Part shown: positions 1,975 through 52,530 of the stretch, in pieces
Numbering within the stretch: position 1 is the stretch's first letter
Layout: each line of letters begins with the position of its first letter
Source: Octopus vulgaris
Taxonomy: Eukaryota
DNA length: 64,000 nt
Direction: 5' to 3'
NCBI GenBank assembly: GCA_951406725.2
Contig: OX597818.1
Coordinates: forward strand, 122,202,001-122,266,000
Notes under the pieces: model-generated
Database searches by the model: none
Told to the model about the DNA's origin: nothing
The model's input: only the letters and a program-made list of their open reading frames with translations
Made by a program: the position numbers and the translations under genes

Positions 1975-2165
1975 TTTAGCGGTATTTCGTCTGCCATTAC
2001 TCTCTGAGTTCAAACTCTGCCGAGGTCGACTTTGCCTTTCATCATTTCGGGGGCGATTAAATAACTACTAGTTATGCACTGGGGCCGATGCAATCGAATT
2101 AAACCCCTTGTGTGTCCTTGTTTGCCCCCTCTATGTTTAGCTTCCTGTGGGCAATAAAGAAATAA
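1975..2165 (+). mobile_element. SINE-M (tRNA head, Meta-like core, Tx1-like tail), 5'-truncated
   Basis: B box GAGTTCAAA, core GTCGACTTTGCCTTTCATC, tail ...TGTGGGCAATAAAGAAATA. Confidence 0.85.
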
Positions 2166-2613: not shown

Positions 2614-3268
2614 TATATATATATATGTATATGCATGTATATGCATATATATGTATGTATACGCAAATGTGTAGGTGTCGATATATGCATGCACATGTGA
2701 GTAGTTGTGGTTATTATATGTGTGTATGTATGTTAATACTTATGTGAATAGCTGGTGGTAATAAGATTTAGATTATAATCCCTAGGAAATGTTACATTGA
2801 AAAATAATGATAATAACGAAGCAACATAAAAGGATAGGGAAGAGAGTGGGAAAGAGAGACAGAAAGAAGAAAGGAAGGTTTTAGTGAGAGAGAGAGAGAG
2901 AAAGAAAGAGAGAGAGCATAAAAAATAGAAACTAAGAGAATTAGAATAATGCGATGAAGGTTTGAAAACAGAAATAAAATCATTATTTTTAATATTGTTG
3001 TCATTGTTCTCCCCCTCCTCCTCATCATCATCATCACAAAATGATTAATTTGGAGTAAAAAATGGGGCTAATTGCAAAGGATTATTTGATAGATGCTGAT
3101 AGCACTTGACTGTTAAATGCTGGATTATAGTGGGAAGTTATGTATGCAAATGCGTGTGTGTGTTTGTAGGCGTGCGTGTACATATATATATATGAATAAT
3201 TGTGCATATATATTTACACATACAATATACATACATGCATATAAACACACGCACACACACAGACACAG

Positions 3269-3312
<44 letters not shown>

Positions 3313-3389
3313 ATGCATACTCTCTCTCTTTCTCTGACGCACACACACACTCATATTTTGTGGTGTGTGTAGAAGTACGTGATTAAATA

Positions 3390-4100
3390 CCTGCAGTGCA
3401 CTTCTAAATATCCACTATCGATGTTTTCCGATAACTCATTACTTTCGTTACCATAGCGACCCAAAAATCGTTTAGACAATTTTGCAATTCCGTGAGTTGT
3501 TTCGGGACACATCTTGCACAAACATCTTTACTAACGACATATATGTTGCGTAAGATTTCATTGAACTCTCACTGAATACATTTGCTTATTATTTACCACA
3601 TCACCATTAGTTCCGGTTTGGCCAACTGAAGCTTTTCACGGACTTGATCAGTGGTGTCAACATCACAGGACGTGATCTGGCCTTCGACTCAAATGTTGAA
3701 GCATGATGAACGTGCAACTATTTCTGCAAACTGTCAATCCGTTCGGAGACAGTCCATGGTGGCAACATCCTGTTCACATGAAGAAGCAAAGTCACACTAT
3801 CCAACATATCTTCCTGGACATAAAAAGATGTAATTTAAGGAATATTTGGTTGTTCTTTCCCAGATTGAGCGACGGCTTTTGTGTGTGTTGTGTGCATCTC
3901 TTTTTTGATATTTGCTATACATTATTAGCCCAAAGTCAACACACACGGAAGCAGGTCTGTGGTGAACGTTATCTTAATTGTTACCATATTCTGTGCCGGA
4001 AACCTTGGAATATATAGATTTGATTGATGTGTGAAGTGCTGGCTGTTTGTATCATTTTATCTAAGACATAGCCCATTAAATCTTTGGGTCACCAGATATA
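3390..4100 (-). mobile_element. Decayed mariner-like transposon fragment (duplicate at ~9258-9968)
   Basis: Minus translation VCARCVPKQLTE (WVPxxL motif) followed by FLGRYGNE. TIR-like end near 4100. Confidence 0.65.
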
Positions 4101-4654
4101 CATTCTCTTATTCACTATATCTAAAATCTAATGTCATTCTCTCGAAGACTGTAGACATAAAGCTGAGACATATTTTCGTTACATCACATTCAATATGTTG
4201 ATAAACACACACACACACACACATACACACACATCTAAATTGTGCTGACAGACTTACACAATCAGAAACAAACACGCACGTACGCATCCATAAATACACA
4301 TTTATCAAACCTGCATAGACATACGAAATCTTTTATACTTCAGAGATTTGTAACAAGATCTTTATTTAAGATTGCAGTTACACCAGGGCATCGCTTTGAA
4401 CGGTTTTATTCGAACAAATTGATCCAGGTCTCGGTTTTGTTTTTAAAGTGTGATAGTTACTATATCGGTCTCATATGGCGAACCGCTAGTTTAATGAGGC
4501 ATAGACAAACCAATACAGGTTGTGAAACGGTTGTAGGGGAAAGCACTCACACCCACATATACACACACAAACACATACACATATGCATGCACGCAAGCAC
4601 ATACAAACAAGCGCACGCGCACACACACACACACACATGCACACATACGCATAT

Positions 4655-4785
4655 AGACGGCAGGCTTTTCTGCTCACAAGATCCGGGGCTATAATAGAAG
4701 ACACATCACCAAAGTGCCTCGTAGTGGGACTGAACCCGGAACCATGTGGTTGGGAAGCAAACTTCTCACCTCACATCCACATCTT
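4655..4785 (-). mobile_element. SINE-A 5' part (duplicate at ~10523-10653)
   Basis: Matches the CCCAACCACATGGTTCCGGGTTCAGTCCCACT head seen in other copies. Confidence 0.75.
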
Positions 4786-5797
4786 TCTTGATTTATAGAG
4801 CTGGATGCTGTTGAAGATGCTTACGTTTACGAAGACGAAATCGACTGAGACAACATTGCTAACAACAATAATAATGACAACCACAACGATGCAGATCACA
4901 ATGGTTACAGCAATGATGTCTCCATTGTCGAAAGGGATTGCATGCACGGTAAGGATGACAGAAATGGTAATAACAACAGTAATGACAGCAAACATGATAA
5001 TAACAAAGACGACAACACAAAAGGAAAAAATAGAGAACGTAACACGTGCATGCTGACAACGTTAATAAGTGCAAGAGTAATTTTGTTCCTTTTATTATCT
5101 GAGTACGTATTTCAATTAGACAGGGCAACAACAGTCGACATTATAATGATTCACATACCACTGAGGTCTATTGTAATGGCGGAGTTCATTAAGTTATTTC
5201 GCTTTCATTCATCTGTTTTCACTCGATCTTACTCGCTTCCTCTACCTCCATACATCCTTTTAATCATTCCTCCGCGCTGACAATATTACTCTGGCCACCG
5301 TTTCTGAAATTGCTGCTCATGTGTGTGTTTTATCTGTGGCATAAATAACTACGTCACTTTTTTTTTCGTTTATTTGTTTCGTTATTTATGTATTTATTTC
5401 CTGTATTTATTCATTATCTGCTTCGTTTGCATATTTTATTGTTTGTGCATATCTAACAGATCAACAACTGCATTCAGTATCACATTACAAACCGAGTTGG
5501 ATATAAAACATTTGAAGTGCGCTTTCGTCTTTGTCTTCCAGAAGTCATAAAATCGATAACGACGTTACATGCACACGTTCCGCAACACAAACACACATAC
5601 ACGTATGTATTTTTATGTATACGTGTGTATGTATGTATGTATGTATGTATGTATGTATGTATGTATGCATGTATGTATGCATGTATGTACGTATGTATAA
5701 TGTAATATGTGTATATATTCATACAATTGTATATATATATATATAATACAATGTAATATTATATATGTATATATGTATATGTATATCTATCTATTTA

Positions 5798-5831
<34 letters not shown>

Positions 5832-5897
5832 AATTTTTTTCAGAATGAGATAAAAAAATCAAGGCTGTGAAGATTTTAGAACGTTTATAAATAGAAG

Positions 5898-5936
<39 letters not shown>

Positions 5937-6486
5937 GTATAATGTGCATATACATATATGTAAATACCTATGTTCATCAGCTGTTTCATTAACATAAGCA
6001 TCATTAATTTCGTAATTAAACTATATAATTTAAATTAAATTAATTTTAAAAAGAATTTCACCTATATCATTGGGTAAATCATATATATACATATATATGC
6101 ATATATACATATACATATATATATACACACACACATATATATATATACACACACACACACACACTTTAATGACTCTTTATTGACTCATCAAATGCAAACA
6201 TTTCGAATATCGCCAAAAACAAATTGTCTAAAAGGCGTTTTTCTCGTTGATATTATCCCCAAATTTCATAATCTATAAGCTAGTTTCTATTAGTCACGGC
6301 ATCTACACGCTGAAGAGAGTTTCTTTATTTTTATACATTCCTATCAGTTACAATCAATATTACTCACACAAATGAGTTAGCTTGTACGTCGTCCGAGATC
6401 CTGTTAGAAATAAAGGTCCTTTTTCCCCTAAATGACCAAATACCGTTTTAAGCACAAAATATTACGTAAGATAATGTTCGCCATTT

Positions 6487-6614
6487 ATTTCATTTATTCT
6501 GGGAAGGTCTGCGATAACAAAGTTCACAATACCCCATTCCACCTTATGACGTCATAAAGTGGAATGGGGTGTTGTGACCTTTGTTATCGCAGACCTTCCC
6601 AGGACAAATGAAAT
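6487..6614. repeat. 128-bp loopless palindrome, MITE-like (duplicate at 12369-12496)
   Basis: Symmetric about TATGAC|GTCATA (6550/6551) with few mismatches. Confidence 0.9.
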
Positions 6615-6796
6615 TTATGCCGCCAACATTACGTCGATTGCAGGAAATACATATTTTTTAGTAGAAAAATTCAGAAAACTACAGTCATTCTGGGATGGTG
6701 AGAAGGAATGACTAAAGTGATTAGTGCAGTCTCTGGGGTTCGTACAGTATGAATGTTGAGGAACGAAAAGAGAGATGAGTGAGTCAGTAGAATTCT

Positions 6797-7024
6797 TATT
6801 TCTTTATTGCCCACAAGGGGCTAAACATAGAGGGGACAAGCATGAACAGACAAAGGGATTAAGTCGATTACATCGACCCCAGTGCGTAACTGGTACTTAA
6901 TTTATCGACCCCGAAAGGATGAAAGGTAAAGTCGACCAAGGCGGAATTTGAACTCAGAACGTAACGGTAGACGAAATACCGCAAAGCATTTCGCCCGGCG
7001 TGCTAACGATTCTGCCAGCTCACG
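6797..7024 (-). mobile_element. SINE-M, near full length (duplicate at 12679-12906)
   Basis: A box TGGCAGAATCG, B box GAGTTCAAATTCC, Meta-like core and Tx1-like tail. Confidence 0.9.
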
Positions 7025-8729
7025 TTTAATAGGTGATACTATTTCAGTCAGCCACGAAGAATATACCAAAATAGGAAATGTTCACGGCTGGAACGACTTT
7101 CATAATTTGTTCGACCAGAAAGTGACCTGAGCATTAAATGACAATAATAATAGCAATAACGTCATTTGGTTAGACTTAGAGCAGAATCACTGAATCTTTT
7201 CGAAATTTATGTGTTTCCTGTTCGAGTTGATCCACACTAGTTTAAACATCATGAAGCTCACTGGTCTCCATGAACGGCGAAAGTCATGGGCGCTGTCCCT
7301 TCTTCAGATTCATCAAGGAATAAAAATCCACATCTAAATAATTTGGGAAATTCTATATATTTCGAATATTAAGTCGAAAATGTTTTAATGGTATTGTTTC
7401 TAAGCTTTATTTCTCTGTTATAGAAGGACAGTGGATTAAATAGCAGGGAGAAACACTTTATTAATAAAACTTGCTAAAAGCAACCGATGGGATTAATAAA
7501 AACATATACAAAAAAAAAGGAAGTTCTGGTTATGTTTAGCTCTGATGGAAATAATTAAGTCTGTGTAATCTTTATGTGCAGAGTTGATGCGCATAAATGA
7601 TGTAGCACAGGGTAAATGCTTGCAAGGCTGGTAATTTGCTGCCATTAGTGCACTTAAAATGATGCATCCACTTTAAAAAAAATAAAATAACACAAATACA
7701 AAAGAAAACAAATTTATGTATGCGTAATCGCTCCTCTCTTTCTCTTTCACTCAATACACATATTTATATAAACGGAAGCACCAAACATATATGCACATGT
7801 GTAATATTATACATATCTAAATCATATATATGCATATATATATGTATACATACATACATAAATATATATATATATATATATATATGCATACATACATGAA
7901 TACTCATGTGCATACGAATGCACATGCGTGTGTTTAAAAATATACTCGTAATTTTATAATTTTAACATATTCACACACATTTACGCACATTTATATCATA
8001 CACTTGACAGGCTTTAAACCTTTGCAAGCATTAAGCAGTTACACGCATAAATACAAACATATAGACAAGTATGCACAAAATCACAAACGCAAATTACATA
8101 TACACTGAATTTCAAAATCTCGCTAACACCAACGTAAATATGGTGTCATTCTTGATGCCAATAATTAAAACTAACTGTTCGAAATTATGTCACAAAATTA
8201 ATTAAAATTATTTTTAATGTTGTAAATATTATTAATTTACAAGTTCCGCTACTTAGAGAATATTAATTAAATCTATTAAAACCATCACGCTTTGATACAC
8301 CAATTTTCGTACGTTAATTATCACCGATTATGTCTTATTTCTGACTTTAAAAGGGCGAAGAGAATATACTGTTTAGCATAATATTTTCAAACAGAGTGGG
8401 CCGAATGGTTCAACATTTTATTTCCATATAATCAGTTTTTTGTTGTGGCTGTTTATAGTTACATAGCCTCGTCGGCATACGGCACAACAATTATTAATCT
8501 TTTAACAAACGAAAAATTCACCTAACACTTAATGGTTTTGCCACACATCTGGAAAGTGCACTTACCATTGACACATTCTAAACAGCTTTTTGGTTAGATC
8601 TTTCCTAACTCAACTTTCCCTGCTGCCTTCCTCTCCAAACTGGAATGGGAAAAAAATCATTAACGAAGGCAGATCGCTGCTGCTTACCGCACAGTATGTC
8701 CTGCTGCAAACGCTATGACTCCATCGAAA

Positions 8730-8829: not shown

Positions 8830-9136
8830 TTGAAAACAGAAATAAAATCATTATTTTTAATATTGTTGTCATTGTTCTCCCCCTCCTCCTCATCATCATC
8901 ATCACAAAATGATTAATTTGGAGTAAAAAATGGGGCTAATTGCAAAGGATTATTTGATAGATGCTGATAGCACTTGACTGTTAAATGCTGGATTATAGTG
9001 GGAAGTTATGTATGCAAATGCGTGTGTGTGTTTGTAGGCGTGCGTGTACATATATATATATGAATAATTGTGCATATATATTTACACATACAATATACAT
9101 ACATGCATATAAACACACGCACACACACAGACACAG

Positions 9137-9180
<44 letters not shown>

Positions 9181-11666
9181 ATGCATACTCTCTCTCTTTC
9201 TCTGACGCACACACACACTCATATTTTGTGGTGTGTGTAGAAGTACGTGATTAAATACCTGCAGTGCACTTCTAAATATCCACTATCGATGTTTTCCGAT
9301 AACTCATTACTTTCGTTACCATAGCGACCCAAAAATCGTTTAGACAATTTTGCAATTCCGTGAGTTGTTTCGGGACACATCTTGCACAAACATCTTTACT
9401 AACGACATATATGTTGCGTAAGATTTCATTGAACTCTCACTGAATACATTTGCTTATTATTTACCACATCACCATTAGTTCCGGTTTGGCCAACTGAAGC
9501 TTTTCACGGACTTGATCAGTGGTGTCAACATCACAGGACGTGATCTGGCCTTCGACTCAAATGTTGAAGCATGATGAACGTGCAACTATTTCTGCAAACT
9601 GTCAATCCGTTCGGAGACAGTCCATGGTGGCAACATCCTGTTCACATGAAGAAGCAAAGTCACACTATCCAACATATCTTCCTGGACATAAAAAGATGTA
9701 ATTTAAGGAATATTTGGTTGTTCTTTCCCAGATTGAGCGACGGCTTTTGTGTGTGTTGTGTGCATCTCTTTTTTGATATTTGCTATACATTATTAGCCCA
9801 AAGTCAACACACACGGAAGCAGGTCTGTGGTGAACGTTATCTTAATTGTTACCATATTCTGTGCCGGAAACCTTGGAATATATAGATTTGATTGATGTGT
9901 GAAGTGCTGGCTGTTTGTATCATTTTATCTAAGACATAGCCCATTAAATCTTTGGGTCACCAGATATACATTCTCTTATTCACTATATCTAAAATCTAAT
10001 GTCATTCTCTCGAAGACTGTAGACATAAAGCTGAGACATATTTTCGTTACATCACATTCAATATGTTGATAAACACACACACACACACACATACACACAC
10101 ATCTAAATTGTGCTGACAGACTTACACAATCAGAAACAAACACGCACGTACGCATCCATAAATACACATTTATCAAACCTGCATAGACATACGAAATCTT
10201 TTATACTTCAGAGATTTGTAACAAGATCTTTATTTAAGATTGCAGTTACACCAGGGCATCGCTTTGAACGGTTTTATTCGAACAAATTGATCCAGGTCTC
10301 GGTTTTGTTTTTAAAGTGTGATAGTTACTATATCGGTCTCATATGGCGAACCGCTAGTTTAATGAGGCATAGACAAACCAATACAGGTTGTGAAACGGTT
10401 GTAGGGGAAAGCACTCACACCCACATATACACACACAAACACATACACATATGCATGCACGCAAGCACATACAAACAAGCGCACGCGCACACACACACAC
10501 ACACATGCACACATACGCATATAGACGGCAGGCTTTTCTGGTCACAAGATCCGGGGCTATAATAGAAGACACATCACCAAAGTGCCTCGTAGTGGGACTG
10601 AACCCGGAACCATGTGGTTGGGAAGCAAACTTCTCACCTCACATCCACATCTTTCTTGATTTATAGAGCTGGATGCTGTTGAAGATGCTTACGTTTACGA
10701 AGACGAAATCGACTGAGACAACATTGCTAACAACAATAATAATGACAACCACAACGATGCAGATCACAATGGTTACAGCAATGATGTCTCCATTGTCGAA
10801 AGGGATTGCATGCACGGTAAGGATGACAGAAATGGTAATAACAACAGTAATGACAGCAAACATGATAATAACAAAGACGACAACACAAAAGGAAAAAATA
10901 GAGAACGTAACACGTGCATGCTGACAACGTTAATAAGTGCAAGAGTAATTTTGTTCCTTTTATTATCTGAGTACGTATTTCAATTAGACAGGGCAACAAC
11001 AGTCGACATTATAATGATTCACATACCACTGAGGTCTATTGTAATGGCGGAGTTCATTAAGTTATTTCTGCTTTCATTCATCTGTTTTCACTCGATCTTA
11101 CTCGCTTCCTCTACCTCCATACATCCTTTTAATCATTCCTCCGCGCTGACAATATTACTCTGGCCACCGTTTCTGAAATTGCTGCTCATGTGTGTGTTTT
11201 ATCTGTGGCATAAATAACTACGTCACTTTTTTTTTCGTTTATTTGTTTCGTTATTTATGTATTTATTTCCTGTATTTATTCATTATCTGCTTCGTTTGCA
11301 TATTTTATTGTTTGTGCATATCTAACAGATCAACAACTGCATTCAGTATCACATTACAAACCGAGTTGGATATAAAACATTTGAAGTGCGCTTTCGTCTT
11401 TGTCTTCCAGAAGTCATAAAATCGATAACGACGTTACATGCACACGTTCCGCAACACAAACACACATACACGTATGTATTTTTATGTATACGTGTGTATG
11501 TATGTATGTATGTATGTATGTATGTATGTATGTATGCATGTATGTATGCATGTATGTACGTATGTATAATGTAATATGTGTATATATTCATACAATTGTA
11601 TATATATATATATAATACAATGTAATATTATATATGTATATATGTATATGTATATCTATCTATTTA

Positions 11667-11717
<51 letters not shown>

Positions 11718-11779
11718 TTTTTTCAGAATGAGATAAAAAAACAAGGCTGTGAAGATTTTAGAACGTTTATAAATAGAAG

Positions 11780-11818
<39 letters not shown>

Positions 11819-14611
11819 GTATAATGTGCATATACATATATGTAAATACCTATGTTCATCAGCTGTTTCATTAACATAAGCATCATTAATTTCGTAATTA
11901 AACTATATAATTTAAATTAAATTAATTTTAAAAAGAATTTCACCTATATCATTGGGTAAATCATATATATACATATATATGCATATATACATATACATAT
12001 ATATATACACACACACATATATATATATACACACACACACACACACTTTAATGACTCTTTATTGACTCATCAAATGCAAACATTTCGAATATCGCCAAAA
12101 ACAAATTGTCTAAAAGGCGTTTTTCTCGTTGATATTATCCCCAAATTTCATAATCTATAAGCTAGTTTCTATTAGTCACGGCATCTACACGCTGAAGAGA
12201 GTTTCTTTATTTTTATACATTCCTATCAGTTACAATCAATATTACTCACACAAATGAGTTAGCTTGTACGTCGTCCGAGATCCTGTTAGAAATAAAGGTC
12301 CTTTTTCCCCTAAATGACCAAATACCGTTTTAAGCACAAAATATTACGTAAGATAATGTTCGCCATTTATTTCATTTATTCTGGGAAGGTCTGCGATAAC
12401 AAAGTTCACAATACCCCATTCCACCTTATGACGTCATAAAGTGGAATGGGGTGTTGTGACCTTTGTTATCGCAGACCTTCCCAGGACAAATGAAATTTAT
12501 GCCGCCAACATTACGTCGATTGCAGGAAATACATATTTTTTAGTAGAAAAATTCAGAAAACTACAGTCATTCTGGGATGGTGAGAAGGAATGACTAAAGT
12601 GATTAGTGCAGTCTCTGGGGTTCGTACAGTATGAATGTTGAGGAACGAAAAGAGAGATGAGTGAGTCAGTAGAATTCTTATTTCTTTATTGCCCACAAGG
12701 GGCTAAACATAGAGGGGACAAGCATGAACAGACAAAGGGATTAAGTCGATTACATCGACCCCAGTGCGTAACTGGTACTTAATTTATCGACCCCGAAAGG
12801 ATGAAAGGTAAAGTCGACCAAGGCGGAATTTGAACTCAGAACGTAACGGTAGACGAAATACCGCAAAGCATTTCGCCCGGCGTGCTAACGATTCTGCCAG
12901 CTCACGTTTAATAGGTGATACTATTTCAGTCAGCCACGAAGAATATACCAAAATAGGAAATGTTCACGGCTGGAACGACTTTCATAATTTGTTCGACCAG
13001 AAAGTGACCTGAGCATTAAATGACAATAATAATAGCAATAACGTCATTTGGTTAGACTTAGAGCAGAATCACTGAATCTTTTCGAAATTTATGTGTTTCC
13101 TGTTCGAGTTGATCCACACTAGTTTAAACATCATGAAGCTCACTGGTCTCCATGAACGGCGAAAGTCATGGGCGCTGTCCCTTCTTCAGATTCATCAAGG
13201 AATAAAAATCCACATCTAAATAATTTGGGAAATTCTATATATTTCGAATATTAAGTCGAAAATGTTTTAATGGTATTGTTTCTAAGCTTTATTTCTCTGT
13301 TATAGAAGGACAGTGGATTAAATAGCAGGGAGAAACACTTTATTAATAAAACTTGCTAAAAGCAACCGATGGGATTAATAAAAACATATACAAAAAAAAA
13401 GGAAGTTCTGGTTATGTTTAGCTCTGATGGAAATAATTAAGTCTGTGTAATCTTTATGTGCAGAGTTGATGCGCATAAATGATGTAGCACAGGGTAAATG
13501 CTTGCAAGGCTGGTAATTTGCTGCCATTAGTGCACTTAAAATGATGCATCCACTTTAAAAAAAATAAAATAACACAAATACAAAAGAAAACAAATTTATG
13601 TATGCGTAATCGCTCCTCTCTTTCTCTTTCACTCAATACACATATTTATATAAACGGAAGCACCAAACATATATGCACATGTGTAATATTATACATATCT
13701 AAATCATATATATGCATATATATATGTATACATACATACATAAATATATATATATATATATATATATGCATACATACATGAATACTCATGTGCATACGAA
13801 TGCACATGCGTGTGTTTAAAAATATACTCGTAATTTTATAATTTTAACATATTCACACACATTTACGCACATTTATATCATACACTTGACAGGCTTTAAA
13901 CCTTTGCAAGCATTAAGCAGTTACACGCATAAATACAAACATATAGACAAGTATGCACAAAATCACAAACGCAAATTACATATACACTGAATTTCAAAAT
14001 CTCGCTAACACCAACGTAAATATGGTGTCATTCTTGATGCCAATAATTAAAACTAACTGTTCGAAATTATGTCACAAAATTAATTAAAATTATTTTTAAT
14101 GTTGTAAATATTATTAATTTACAAGTTCCGCTACTTAGAGAATATTAATTAAATCTATTAAAACCATCACGCTTTGATACACCAATTTTCGTACGTTAAT
14201 TATCACCGATTATGTCTTATTTCTGACTTTAAAAGGGCGAAGAGAATATACTGTTTAGCATAATATTTTCAAACAGAGTGGGCCGAATGGTTCAACATTT
14301 TATTTCCATATAATCAGTTTTTTGTTGTGGCTGTTTATAGTTACATAGCCTCGTCGGCATACGGCACAACAATTATTAATCTTTTAACAAACGAAAAATT
14401 CACCTAACACTTAATGGTTTTGCCACACATCTGGAAAGTGCACTTACCATTGACACATTCTAAACAGCTTTTTGGTTAGATCTTTCCTAACTCAACTTTC
14501 CCTGCTGCCTTCCTCTCCAAACTGGAATGGGAAAAAAATCATTAACGAAGGCAGATCGCTGCTGCTTACCGCACAGTATGTCCTGCTGCAAACGCTATGA
14601 CTCCATCGAAA
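8830..14611 (+). repeat. 5.8-kb segment, copy 2
   Basis: Matches 2962-8729 and starts exactly after the gap. Confidence 0.97.
14448..14521 (-). other. Candidate 74-nt exon (noncoding or 5'UTR) ending ATG|GTAAGT
   Basis: Acceptor TTTTTTTCCCATTCCAG, donor GTAAGTG. Stops occur in all three frames before the terminal ATGs. Confidence 0.35.
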
Positions 14612-15070: not shown

Positions 15071-15076
15071 TATCTG

Positions 15077-15154
<78 letters not shown>

Positions 15155-15171
15155 AATCTATCAATCTATCA

Positions 15172-15261
<90 letters not shown>
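15071..15261. repeat. (TATC)n microsatellite
   Basis: Direct reading; the array resumes at 15931-16040 after the LINE insertion. Confidence 0.95.
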
Positions 15262-15263
<2 letters not shown>

Positions 15264-15930
15264 GTCTGCCGAGTCTATCGTTAATATCGTCACGCCTCCT
15301 TCCTTCAAACGGGAAGGAAGAGCTATTTTTATCATACTTGTGGCTATGGCGAAAGAATGTATCTGGTGGACGCGCCTGAAAGGATTAGAGACAAACACTT
15401 TCCTCTCTGGTCAATCTCTCATCAACTTCTTCAAGTATCACTTGAAGAGGAAAGTGAGAGTAGAGAGGCAAGTTTTGTCTAGTGAATGTTTTTAAAAAAA
15501 GATGGGTGAATGTAGCAAGGATGGCACGTATGAATGACGAAGCCACCTTGACTATGATTCTATGAACCATAAAAATTAATACAGAGAGTTGCTTATTTGC
15601 AAAAAAAAAAAGAAAAAGAAATATAACATGTGACCTCATTGACCGAGGTTACCGTGGTCTTTTCCGTAGGCTTTTCTTTCCACGGGTAAACCTCACCTGT
15701 CCTCCCCTTTACACTACATATTGACATTTCTGTGATAACGATCCCTATTATTCATTTTTTTCTCCCCCCCCCCTTTTTTAACCCCTCCCCTTTTTTTTTG
15801 TCCTTTTTCTTTCCTTTAACGATCCCTTTTGATCGAAAACAACCACTCTCCTTTTTTTACCCCCAAAAGAAAAGCTCTACCTTGTAATTTGTTCTATCTG
15901 TGTGCAGCCCTGTGTGGCTAATAAAGAAAC
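15262..15930 (+). mobile_element. 5'-truncated Tx1/L1-clade non-LTR retrotransposon (ORF2 C-terminus + 3'UTR)
   Basis: Translation [41 protein letters not shown]...[25 protein letters not shown] resembles Tx1 ORF2 C-termini (AKxxIWxxR; F..RW). Ends AATAAAGAAA. Confidence 0.75.
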
Positions 15931-15960
15931 ATATCTGTCTGTCTGTCTATCTACCTATCA

Positions 15961-16024
<64 letters not shown>

Positions 16025-17114
16025 GTCTGTCTGTCTGTCTAACTATCTTCAACAATGTTCTCATAAATAACTTTAAAGCTAAATTTCATATCAATGAAAA
16101 CTTTCTTGCATCTACACTGTTTAAATGTAAACAATGAATCCCGTCAAGCATAACTGTCGGCTATAAGAGATAATGGCAAAGGAGAAGGTATTTGGATATA
16201 GTTCCATCGTAATAAAAGAAAACGATTGTATTAAAGACACACGAAGAAAAAGAACTCTTAGTAACATCAGGAATTACAATCTCAAACCTGCAATATTTCA
16301 ATGGAAAACTTCATGCAAAGAACGAATGTCCATCATTTTAAGCTAAGGCTCGAAACAAATGTCAACGAAATGGAAAAAGAATACGATTTCCAAGTATATT
16401 TAGGAGATGTCAGAGTAATTCATTTCCGATTCTGGTTAGAATACACAGAGCGCAGAAGAAATAGTGGATGAAGTTGGTGACAGCAAAAATATTAAGTATA
16501 ATGAAGATGAACCGGTATCCAAAATGTGCAAACTCTGCTACATGTGAATCGCTTGATAACAATATTTTGTACGTTGGTAAATTTACTTCACAAGAGAAAC
16601 TGCTGTTCAACAAACATCTCAATGATTTCAGAGAGCATATTATCTGAAATTAGTAGCAAAAAGGTAAAAAAAAAAACTGAAACCTGTTTTACTCTTCAAA
16701 CTAATTTATTCCAAAATTAACGCTACTGTTAATCCAGTTCTTAATTTTGATGACCCAGCGCCAGTCGATCAAATCCGTCCTCAATTAGGATTTTTAGGAG
16801 TAGCTCAACTAATTTACTGTGGCAAGTTATCTCCTCTATCACATGTAACTTAGGTAAGTGGCACTAACAATTTACAATATTCTGGTTTTAGTTTTTACAT
16901 ACCACGGTGTCAAATAATTTTATAAAATATATATCAATATATTTTATGTGGTGATATACCTGCAATATTATATGCAATTTTGTTACTGTTTATCACATTC
17001 AGTATAGATACATATTTTCAATTTGTATATACAGAAAATATTACCCATACAATCAGTTAACTCACTCAATTGATTCAAAGTATACTTCAGCTAGCGTTAC
17101 CTCCGTATCCTTAA

Positions 17115-40060: not shown

Positions 40061-40519
40061 GGTATTTGAACTCAGGCTATGGAAAGCCGTAATTAAAACA
40101 TACAAGTAATTAGGAACAACGCTTTAGTGACTATGCCTGTACACCGCCATATTAGTAATGAGTTCTAAGATAGCGTAAGAGCCTCTCATTATGGAGACGG
40201 TGGTATAATGACCTGTTTCGATCCCAAGTACCGTAATGGTTAATATATTTATCGCTCTTGAAAGGATGAAAAGCAGAAAATTGACCACGACGATACCAGA
40301 GAACAAAATACCAGAATGAATACCGGAAGTCGTTCAGCCAACTCATCGTCTCAAGTTCATCATGATAACAGGAAAACAGTTATCCGCGAATGACTAGAAT
40401 ACAGCACGAAGGTAGATTCATTTTTCATCCGCCCACTACAACGAAAAGAGCCTCGAAGATATGAAAGCGAGTTAGGTAACAGAACGGAAAAGAATTTGAT
40501 CATAAAATTGTGACTAATG

Positions 40520-52131: not shown

Positions 52132-52530
52132 TCTTTTCTACTCTAGGCGCAAGGCCCGAAATTTTGGGGGAGAGGGCCAGTCGATTAGATCGACCCCTGT
52201 ACGCAACTGGTATTTAATTTATCGAACCCGAAATGATGAAAGGTAAAGTCGACCTCTGCAGAATTTGAACTCAAAACGTAAAGACAGACGAAATACCTAT
52301 TTCTTTACTACCCACAAGGGGCTAAACACAGAGGGGACAAACAAGGAAAGACAAACGGATTAAGTCAATTAGATCGACCCCAGTGCGTAACTGGTACTTA
52401 ATTTATCGACCCCGAAAGGATGAAAATCAAAGTCGACCTCGGCAGAATTTGAACTCAGAACGTAACGGCAGACGAAATTACGGCTACGCATTTCGCCCGG
52501 CACGCTAACGATTCTGCCAGCTCGCCGCCT
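52132..52530 (-). mobile_element. SINE-M (Tx1-like tail) nested in SINE-M with alternative tail
   Basis: Full copy 52298-52530 is joined at GGTATTTCGTC to a body at 52132-52297 ending GGGCCTTGCGCCTAGAGTAGAAAAG. Confidence 0.9.

Follow-up and report, generated by a model that had tools for sequence, protein, structure and literature searches.

The window analyzed here is a stretch of 64,000 nucleotides of the Octopus vulgaris genome (assembly GCA_951406725.2, contig OX597818.1, positions 122,202,001 to 122,266,000 of the forward strand). It contains a 5'-truncated LINE of a family that we call A, lying within a tetranucleotide microsatellite, and copies of a SINE whose 3' tail is similar to the LINE end. 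The LINE locus comprises the following features, in window coordinates.

15071..15267: tetranucleotide microsatellite, 5' flank of the LINE and target of family A
15268..15931, + strand: 5'-truncated copy of LINE family A, young subfamily (full length ~6.2 kb, with ORF1 and ORF2)
15268..15565, + strand: C-terminal remnant of ORF2 with one frameshift and a stop codon at 15563-15565
15566..15931, + strand: 3' UTR without poly(A)
15888..15931, + strand: tail module common with the SINE (42 nt plus 2 terminal nt; 33/42 identity)
15897..15927, + strand: predicted two-tier stem-loop, with an upper stem at 15906-15919 and a 6-nt loop (5-nt loop in the SINE)
15932..16040: tetranucleotide microsatellite, 3' flank of the LINE

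A genomic search for family A yielded 2,143 first-look candidates, and the 40 that were scored, including the window copy, are 96-100% identical. A common 5' end ~6.2 kb upstream is reached in four of 20 longer stretches. Family A shows a target-sequence preference: the same tetranucleotide repeat forms the 3' flank in 29 of the 30 fetched loci (a TA repeat in the other one), many truncated 5' junctions also fall inside it, and 73 of 87 family-A ends open with one 4-base word, with 56 of the ends lying inside the repeat of that word. Copies of different family-A subfamilies can be observed stacked head to tail within the same microsatellite arrays (L005, L037, L038, L041, L044). Truncation at the 5' side recurs near one ORF2 position that adjoins an internal match to the target repeat (window position 15268; L006; L068).

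The 1144-aa ORF2 protein (locus L042) contains the Pfam domains Exo_endo_phos (an N-terminal AP endonuclease), RVT_1, and a C-terminal zf-RVT. Its best match among solved structures is human L1 ORF2p (E 6e-55 over residues 5-856), and R2 matches at 2e-17; L1 and R2 were the only ORF proteins matched in this search. By domain layout and by its greater closeness to L1 ORF2p than to R2, the LINE belongs to the L1 group. ORF1 has a zf-CCHC match below the Pfam cut-off (E 0.003), and a Pfam search of the family-A ORF1 gave no match to Transposase_22; CCHC-type ORF1s without Transposase_22 in non-mammalian animals have been tied to Tx1 (PMC5203782). Homologue searches and a cluster look-up with the LINE proteins returned no protein named Tx1, the nearest named homologue being a protein of Argonauta hians (68%). 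The first-pass annotation had described the element as a Tx1-like LINE. Its place in the L1 group stands, and its architecture and target preference are Tx1-like; the Tx1 clade itself is a likely assignment, deduced from architecture and target behavior.

The SINE is represented in the window by the following copies and associated features.

1977..2164, + strand: SINE copy with the 5' part missing or rearranged
6797..7021, - strand: SINE copy identical to 12679-12903, within a 5.78-kb duplicate
12679..12903, - strand: SINE copy of subfamily C, followed by word-16
30883..31031, - strand: 5'-truncated SINE inside a TA repeat
32057..32471, - strand: SINE dimer, a full unit plus a 184-nt unit starting from SINE position 49
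39816-39830 and 40061-40075: 15-bp target duplication of the full-length SINE
39829..40060, + strand: full-length SINE of 232 nt, with a tRNA-like head, A- and B-box-like motifs, a body, and a Tx1-type tail from ~39997
39844-39847 and 39877-39880: word-16 and word-49, respectively, in the full-length SINE
52133..52530, - strand: composite of a full Tx1-tailed SINE (52298-52530) followed by a unit from position 49 with a different SINE tail

The whole composite at 52133..52530 is bounded by one 13-bp duplication, read by eye. The segments 2962-8729 and 8830-14611 form a 5.78-kb direct duplicate, 99.7% identical and separated by a 100-N gap, which is likely an assembly artefact; the SINE copies at 6797 and 12679 are not independent because they lie inside it.

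The SINE is short, non-coding, and of high copy number, with 5'-truncated copies and target duplications. The A- and B-box-like motifs of the head were identified by eye against the box consensus. Neither ARAGORN nor Rfam gave a match to a tRNA or a known RNA in the SINE. The main octopus SINEs are tRNA-Core and tRNA-Deu (PMC8967140). Exact 25-nt SINE tails number 95,589 genome-wide, and the copy number extrapolated from 49 copies in 800 kb is ~170,000. The median divergence of 6.9% (n=81) lies close, by analogy only, to the 0.065 at which a SINE/LINE wave has been described in Octopus vulgaris (PMC13282606). A duplicated target was detected in 35 of 110 elements; the duplication has a median length of 15 bp. 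It starts 2 nt past the conserved A-rich end in 23 of these 35 SINEs and later in six; in the remaining six it extends 1-2 nt to the left, as chance would allow. Multimers also occur outside the window: four SINE tails spaced 184 nt apart form a tetramer at G000:C1:652582-653158, and trimers are found in L031 as well.

The earlier annotation had proposed that a 50-nt LINE end at 15880-15929 matches the tails of six SINE copies with 39/47 identities and that the two share a hairpin-like motif. The LINE end and all six tails lie where it placed them, and the count was reproduced as five upstream identities plus 34/42 in the last 42 nt, using the SINE variant chosen there. Compared with the majority of 156 SINE tails, the last 42 nt of the window LINE are identical in 33/42 positions without gaps. 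Older family-A subfamilies reach 37/42 (31 tails, gathered largely by a pattern requiring a SINE-like 5' half). In 800 kb of unselected, evenly placed genomic stretches searched on both strands, all positions with at least 28/42 identities are SINE tails or tails of this LINE lineage. The SINE and the LINE have the same terminal base, the same type of target duplication, and a co-terminal shared 3' sequence. The LINE end is A-rich and resembles a polyadenylation signal, which might favor a chance similarity, or the window copy might be a one-off chimera carrying a SINE tail. Both readings were dropped as practically negligible, because 100,000 shuffles of the 42-nt tail gave a mean of 11 and a maximum of 25 identities, compared with the 33-37 observed; 24/32 positions remain identical without the A-rich last 10 nt; the same tail is present in all 30 of the best genomic LINE copies; and exact 25-nt LINE tails occur 8,890 times genome-wide vs. 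zero for the control. These data support homology between the last ~60 bases of the SINE and the 3' terminus, free of poly(A), of a LINE lineage in the L1 group, likely Tx1.

The tail is the property of a radiation rather than of a single family. At least five related LINE families end in a poly(A)-free related module, each with its own target or flank. The terminal module is found in the ORF2-bearing families A, B, D, E, and F, being less complete in F than in B, D, and E, and the ORF2 C-terminal third of B, D, E, and F is 54-65% identical to that of A. In a FastTree reconstruction of this third, from which six rows under 150 aa were left out and which included no named clade reference, these families and the Argonauta protein form one group with support 1.0. 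Family B sits in CT repeats; family F, which retains only the hairpin and the A-rich end of the module, sits in ATT repeats; the 3' flanks of D and E are unique and either fixed or semi-fixed. LINE copies at unique sites (L065, L068, L074) start their duplications in the same register as the SINE. Some subfamilies of N (an ORF1-only family described below), E, and D have fixed non-microsatellite 3' flanks (the L381-L399 subgroup; L251, L271, L279; the L252-L277 group), which suggests site-specific insertion into other repeats. A putative "family C", with a GT-repeat flank and SINE-like last 25 nt, was rejected as a LINE, as neither ORF1 nor ORF2 lies beside its tail in the loci examined. Its tail also recurs in a tandem array of ~3.6-kb units (L259-L264, G000:C1:216.93-216.95 Mb), each unit containing this tail followed by a GT repeat; neither ORF1 nor ORF2 was detected there.

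For most family representatives, the predicted fold is a short hairpin placed above a lower stem with a bulge. Families D and E have the SINE's hairpin with a 5-nt loop, family A has a shifted stem and a 6-nt loop, and D, E, and N match the SINE hairpin better than the window's subfamily does. The shared hairpin-like motif noted earlier fared unevenly. Over 14 real tails, 90.5% of cells are paired, compared with 38-55% in slid controls; however, the folding of individual tails does not exceed that of shuffled ones (z -0.03 to -0.59), changes on both sides are seen in only 2/9 pairs, and 8 of 500 shuffles reached the score, for a structure drawn from the same sequences. A terminal hairpin is a plausible prediction. 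In zebrafish L2 LINEs, loops set the specificity of tail recognition (PMC4176376). A predicted perfect 11-bp hairpin is also found in the family-A 5' UTR (L038:3381-3407; also L040, L041, L047). Its core is identical to the hairpin of the SINE tail, 5-nt loop included, even though the 3' hairpin of family A itself is altered, and this 5' hairpin may be a second site for ORF2p or ORF1p.

An autonomous LINE with the exact SINE tail was not found: most of the pattern matches turned out to be SINEs that are mutated or truncated at the 5' end. Among 25 of the matching loci that were read, one, L355, is not a SINE and belongs to family N, an old, low-copy family with 44 candidates. Homology to the family-A ORF1, ending within ~1 kb of the tail (pairwise E 1e-15), is present in 11 of 30 family-N loci, and no ORF2 of their own was found in those loci. 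Family N provides the closest match to the SINE tail, with 53 of the last 58 columns identical in L355 and 59/68 identical between the majority of nine selected N tails and the majority SINE. The similarity runs up to five matching bases at the very point where sister SINEs with different tails part from this sequence, which points to acquisition of the tail by template switch from family N or from its lost autonomous parent. Locus L373 was considered as this parent and rejected; it is a family-E LINE inserted in an N copy.

Sister SINEs that share the head and body but differ in the tail occur in the window (52133-52297, 59128-59260, 62700-62870) and at many random loci. The short hairpins of their tails keep the same 5-nt loop between different stems, and several are followed by ATT repeats like those of family F. 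A larger part of the SINE family may therefore rely on this LINE radiation.

Given the tail homology, the SINE has probably relied for its copying on an ORF2 enzyme encoded by a sister family of the window element within this L1-group, likely Tx1, radiation. Divergence is 6.9% for the SINE, 2.3% for young A (n=31), 1.8% for B, 4.8% for E, and 10.6% for F, the family ages coming from best-hit sets that are biased young. Older A spans the age of the SINE, with nearest-neighbor identities of 77-99%; a divergence figure for it against one majority line was set aside, since that comparison lumps several subfamilies and includes truncated copies. With 8,890 exact tails, the A lineage outnumbers the other lineages counted that end in this tail, and among ORF2-bearing families its older subfamilies, which cover the SINE's age, best match the 5' half of the tail. 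It could therefore seem natural that the young subfamily of the window drives the SINE, but this is improbable: its divergence is 2.3% vs. 6.9%, its tail identity is 33/42, its loop is different, and its target word is present at none of 104 non-nested SINE ends. Because the window subfamily is younger and has another loop and another target, it is probably not the driver, and older A subfamilies, E, and the parent of N are the candidates. Still less likely is passive acquisition of the tail by a SINE that is copied by another clade. RTE, CR1, and Dong-R4 have been reported active in Octopus vulgaris (PMC13282606), and sister SINEs that share the head have other tails, in many cases with a trinucleotide repeat after them; but the terminal base and the duplication pattern are of the Tx1 type, and the 800-kb sample holds nothing else at or above the 28/42 level. 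The earlier proposal that a Tx1-clade LINE mobilizes the SINE is supported in part: for tail homology, terminal base, and duplication type, and not for the window subfamily as the partner.

The choice of target differs between SINE subfamilies. Another SINE unit follows directly after 52 of the 156 SINE tails, joined at position 49 in 45 cases and at position 16 in seven, and all seven position-16 junctions belong to subfamily C. At non-nested ends, word-49 and word-16 occur in a ratio of 27:2 in subfamily T and 2:15 in subfamily C (Fisher p=3e-8), against backgrounds of 0.3% and 0.7%. The preferred 4-base targets match what follows each subfamily's tail in tandem copies, and agreement with the nested flank fades past base 4 (bases 5-8 agree in 19, 16, 11, and 5 of 29). 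Among the 104 non-nested ends, 42 fit none of four counted words exactly and 16 start with the TA-repeat word; the target word of family A is found at none, vs. 73/87 family-A ends. As the 5' copy of the duplication also carries the word, the target had it, and it was not merely copied from the RNA. Six dimers and trimers are bounded by a single duplication and hence were likely copied as one long RNA. The SINE tail lacks a Pol III terminator-like T-run, so that the RNA would run on into the flank of the source copy. Four matching primer bases suffice for L1 (PMC3649969), and in R2Ol the start is set by four read-through bases (PMC6795142). By analogy, the subfamily-specific 4-base targets suggest pairing between the RNA and the primer. 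In such a mechanism, ~4-7 flank bases of the read-through RNA would pair with the nicked primer, and each new SINE copy would inherit the flank of its source. An inherited flank would explain the 4-base targets of the subfamilies, self-nesting at positions 49 and 16, and the fact that the microsatellite target of family A is not shared.

Another possible source of the target words is the endonuclease, if one LINE family that cuts at word-49 inside SINE heads mobilized subfamily T and another one subfamily C. Each LINE family here indeed has its own target, as is known for Tx1 (PMC4494074). We nevertheless consider this rather unlikely, as two enzymes would have to discriminate between tails only 1-2 bases apart and no LINE homing to position 49 emerged: none of 94 non-head junctions at this position in 2.0 Mb was a LINE tail, 16 matches of a pattern search looked like SINEs, and in two further searches the sampled matches had SINE-type tails in 9/9 and 2/2 cases, although a LINE identical to the SINE over its last 25 nt would escape such searches. 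RNA-primer pairing is retained as the simplest explanation of target choice, with less confidence than the copying partnership; against it stand the 42 flanks outside the counted words and the chance that a dedicated endonuclease would produce a similar pattern.

These elements can be combined into one scenario, which we put forward tentatively, as possible rather than established: an animal Tx1 radiation uses a folded poly(A)-free tail, priming at a fixed distance, and the bases past the tail as a heritable target guide, and a SINE has captured this tail via an ORF1-only derivative. In the main reading given above, a SINE with a tRNA-like head would have gained its tail when the template switched at five matching bases, the donor being the lineage now seen as ORF1-only family N or N's autonomous parent. 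The ORF2p is predicted to bind the terminal stem-loop and to nick the target; reverse transcription would then start at a fixed base just past the stem-loop and leave a 10-22-bp duplication.

Recognition of poly(A) is the textbook case for the animal L1 group. If the scenario holds, stringent tail recognition extends to an animal branch of this group, which bears on whether stringency is ancestral for L1. The SINE would be among the most abundant elements of the genome, with subfamilies that inherit their own target word and nest in their own heads, and Tx1 target specificity would be partly RNA-programmed and re-targetable. The octopus SINE expansion (at least 95,589 copies) would then, in large part, have a likely engine. 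With one tail module and many targets, these families would form a natural test system for RNA-primer pairing vs. endonuclease in Tx1 targeting.

The available texts of PMC4758252, PMC4824008, PMC8967140, and PMC5786205 give no octopus SINE-LINE pair, and the partners of bivalve SINEs are CR1-Zenon, CR1, L2, and Nimb (PMC11481361). Among the literature covered, searches for a SINE with a Tx1 tail, or for a pairing of SINE and Tx1 in octopus, brought up only SINEU; Repbase or Dfam, supplements, or Ohshima and Okada 1994 may hold such a pair. Table 1 of PMC3747384, in the available part of that paper, has L1-clade pairs only from maize/sorghum and Chlamydomonas, with no Tx1 and no animal L1-clade pair. 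These pairs, ZmSINE2/3 with LINE1-1_ZM and SINEX-3_CR with L1-1_CR, share ~45-80 nt at the 3' end (PMC3747384). As is likely in the octopus, they combine a tRNA SINE with an L1-clade LINE and a putative hairpin, and stringent-type recognition was inferred (PMC3747384). Unlike in those pairs, the host here is an animal, poly(A) is absent, and the partners are target-specific Tx1-like LINEs; the Chlamydomonas pair ends in poly(A).

The crocodilian SINEU and Tx1-Mar resemble the present case in the inferred Tx1 mobilization, tandem insertions, and repeat targeting (PMC4494074). However, SINEU elements have snRNA heads and poly(A) and are linked to Tx1 by a shared target, whereas the octopus elements have the tail, and not the target, in common; the available text reports no LINE sharing the SINEU-1 3' end (PMC4494074). 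Kibi and Koshi are Tx1 elements that insert into microsatellites, and the CT repeat of family B resembles the TC target of Kibi (PMC4494074). Family A differs from them in its tetranucleotide repeat, the likeness being one of description. Like HAL1 and Ag-Sponge, which are ORF1-only LINEs, family N has ORF1 only and keeps the LINE tail (PMC5786205). ORF1-only LINEs were held there to be unable to act as a SINE source (PMC5786205); here N is the closest match, and its lost autonomous parent could be the donor. The zebrafish ZfL2-1 and ZfL2-2 belong to another clade, and recognition was shown there experimentally, whereas here it is predicted; as is predicted for the octopus families, their tails form a two-stem stem-loop in which a conserved module carries family-specific loops (PMC4176376).
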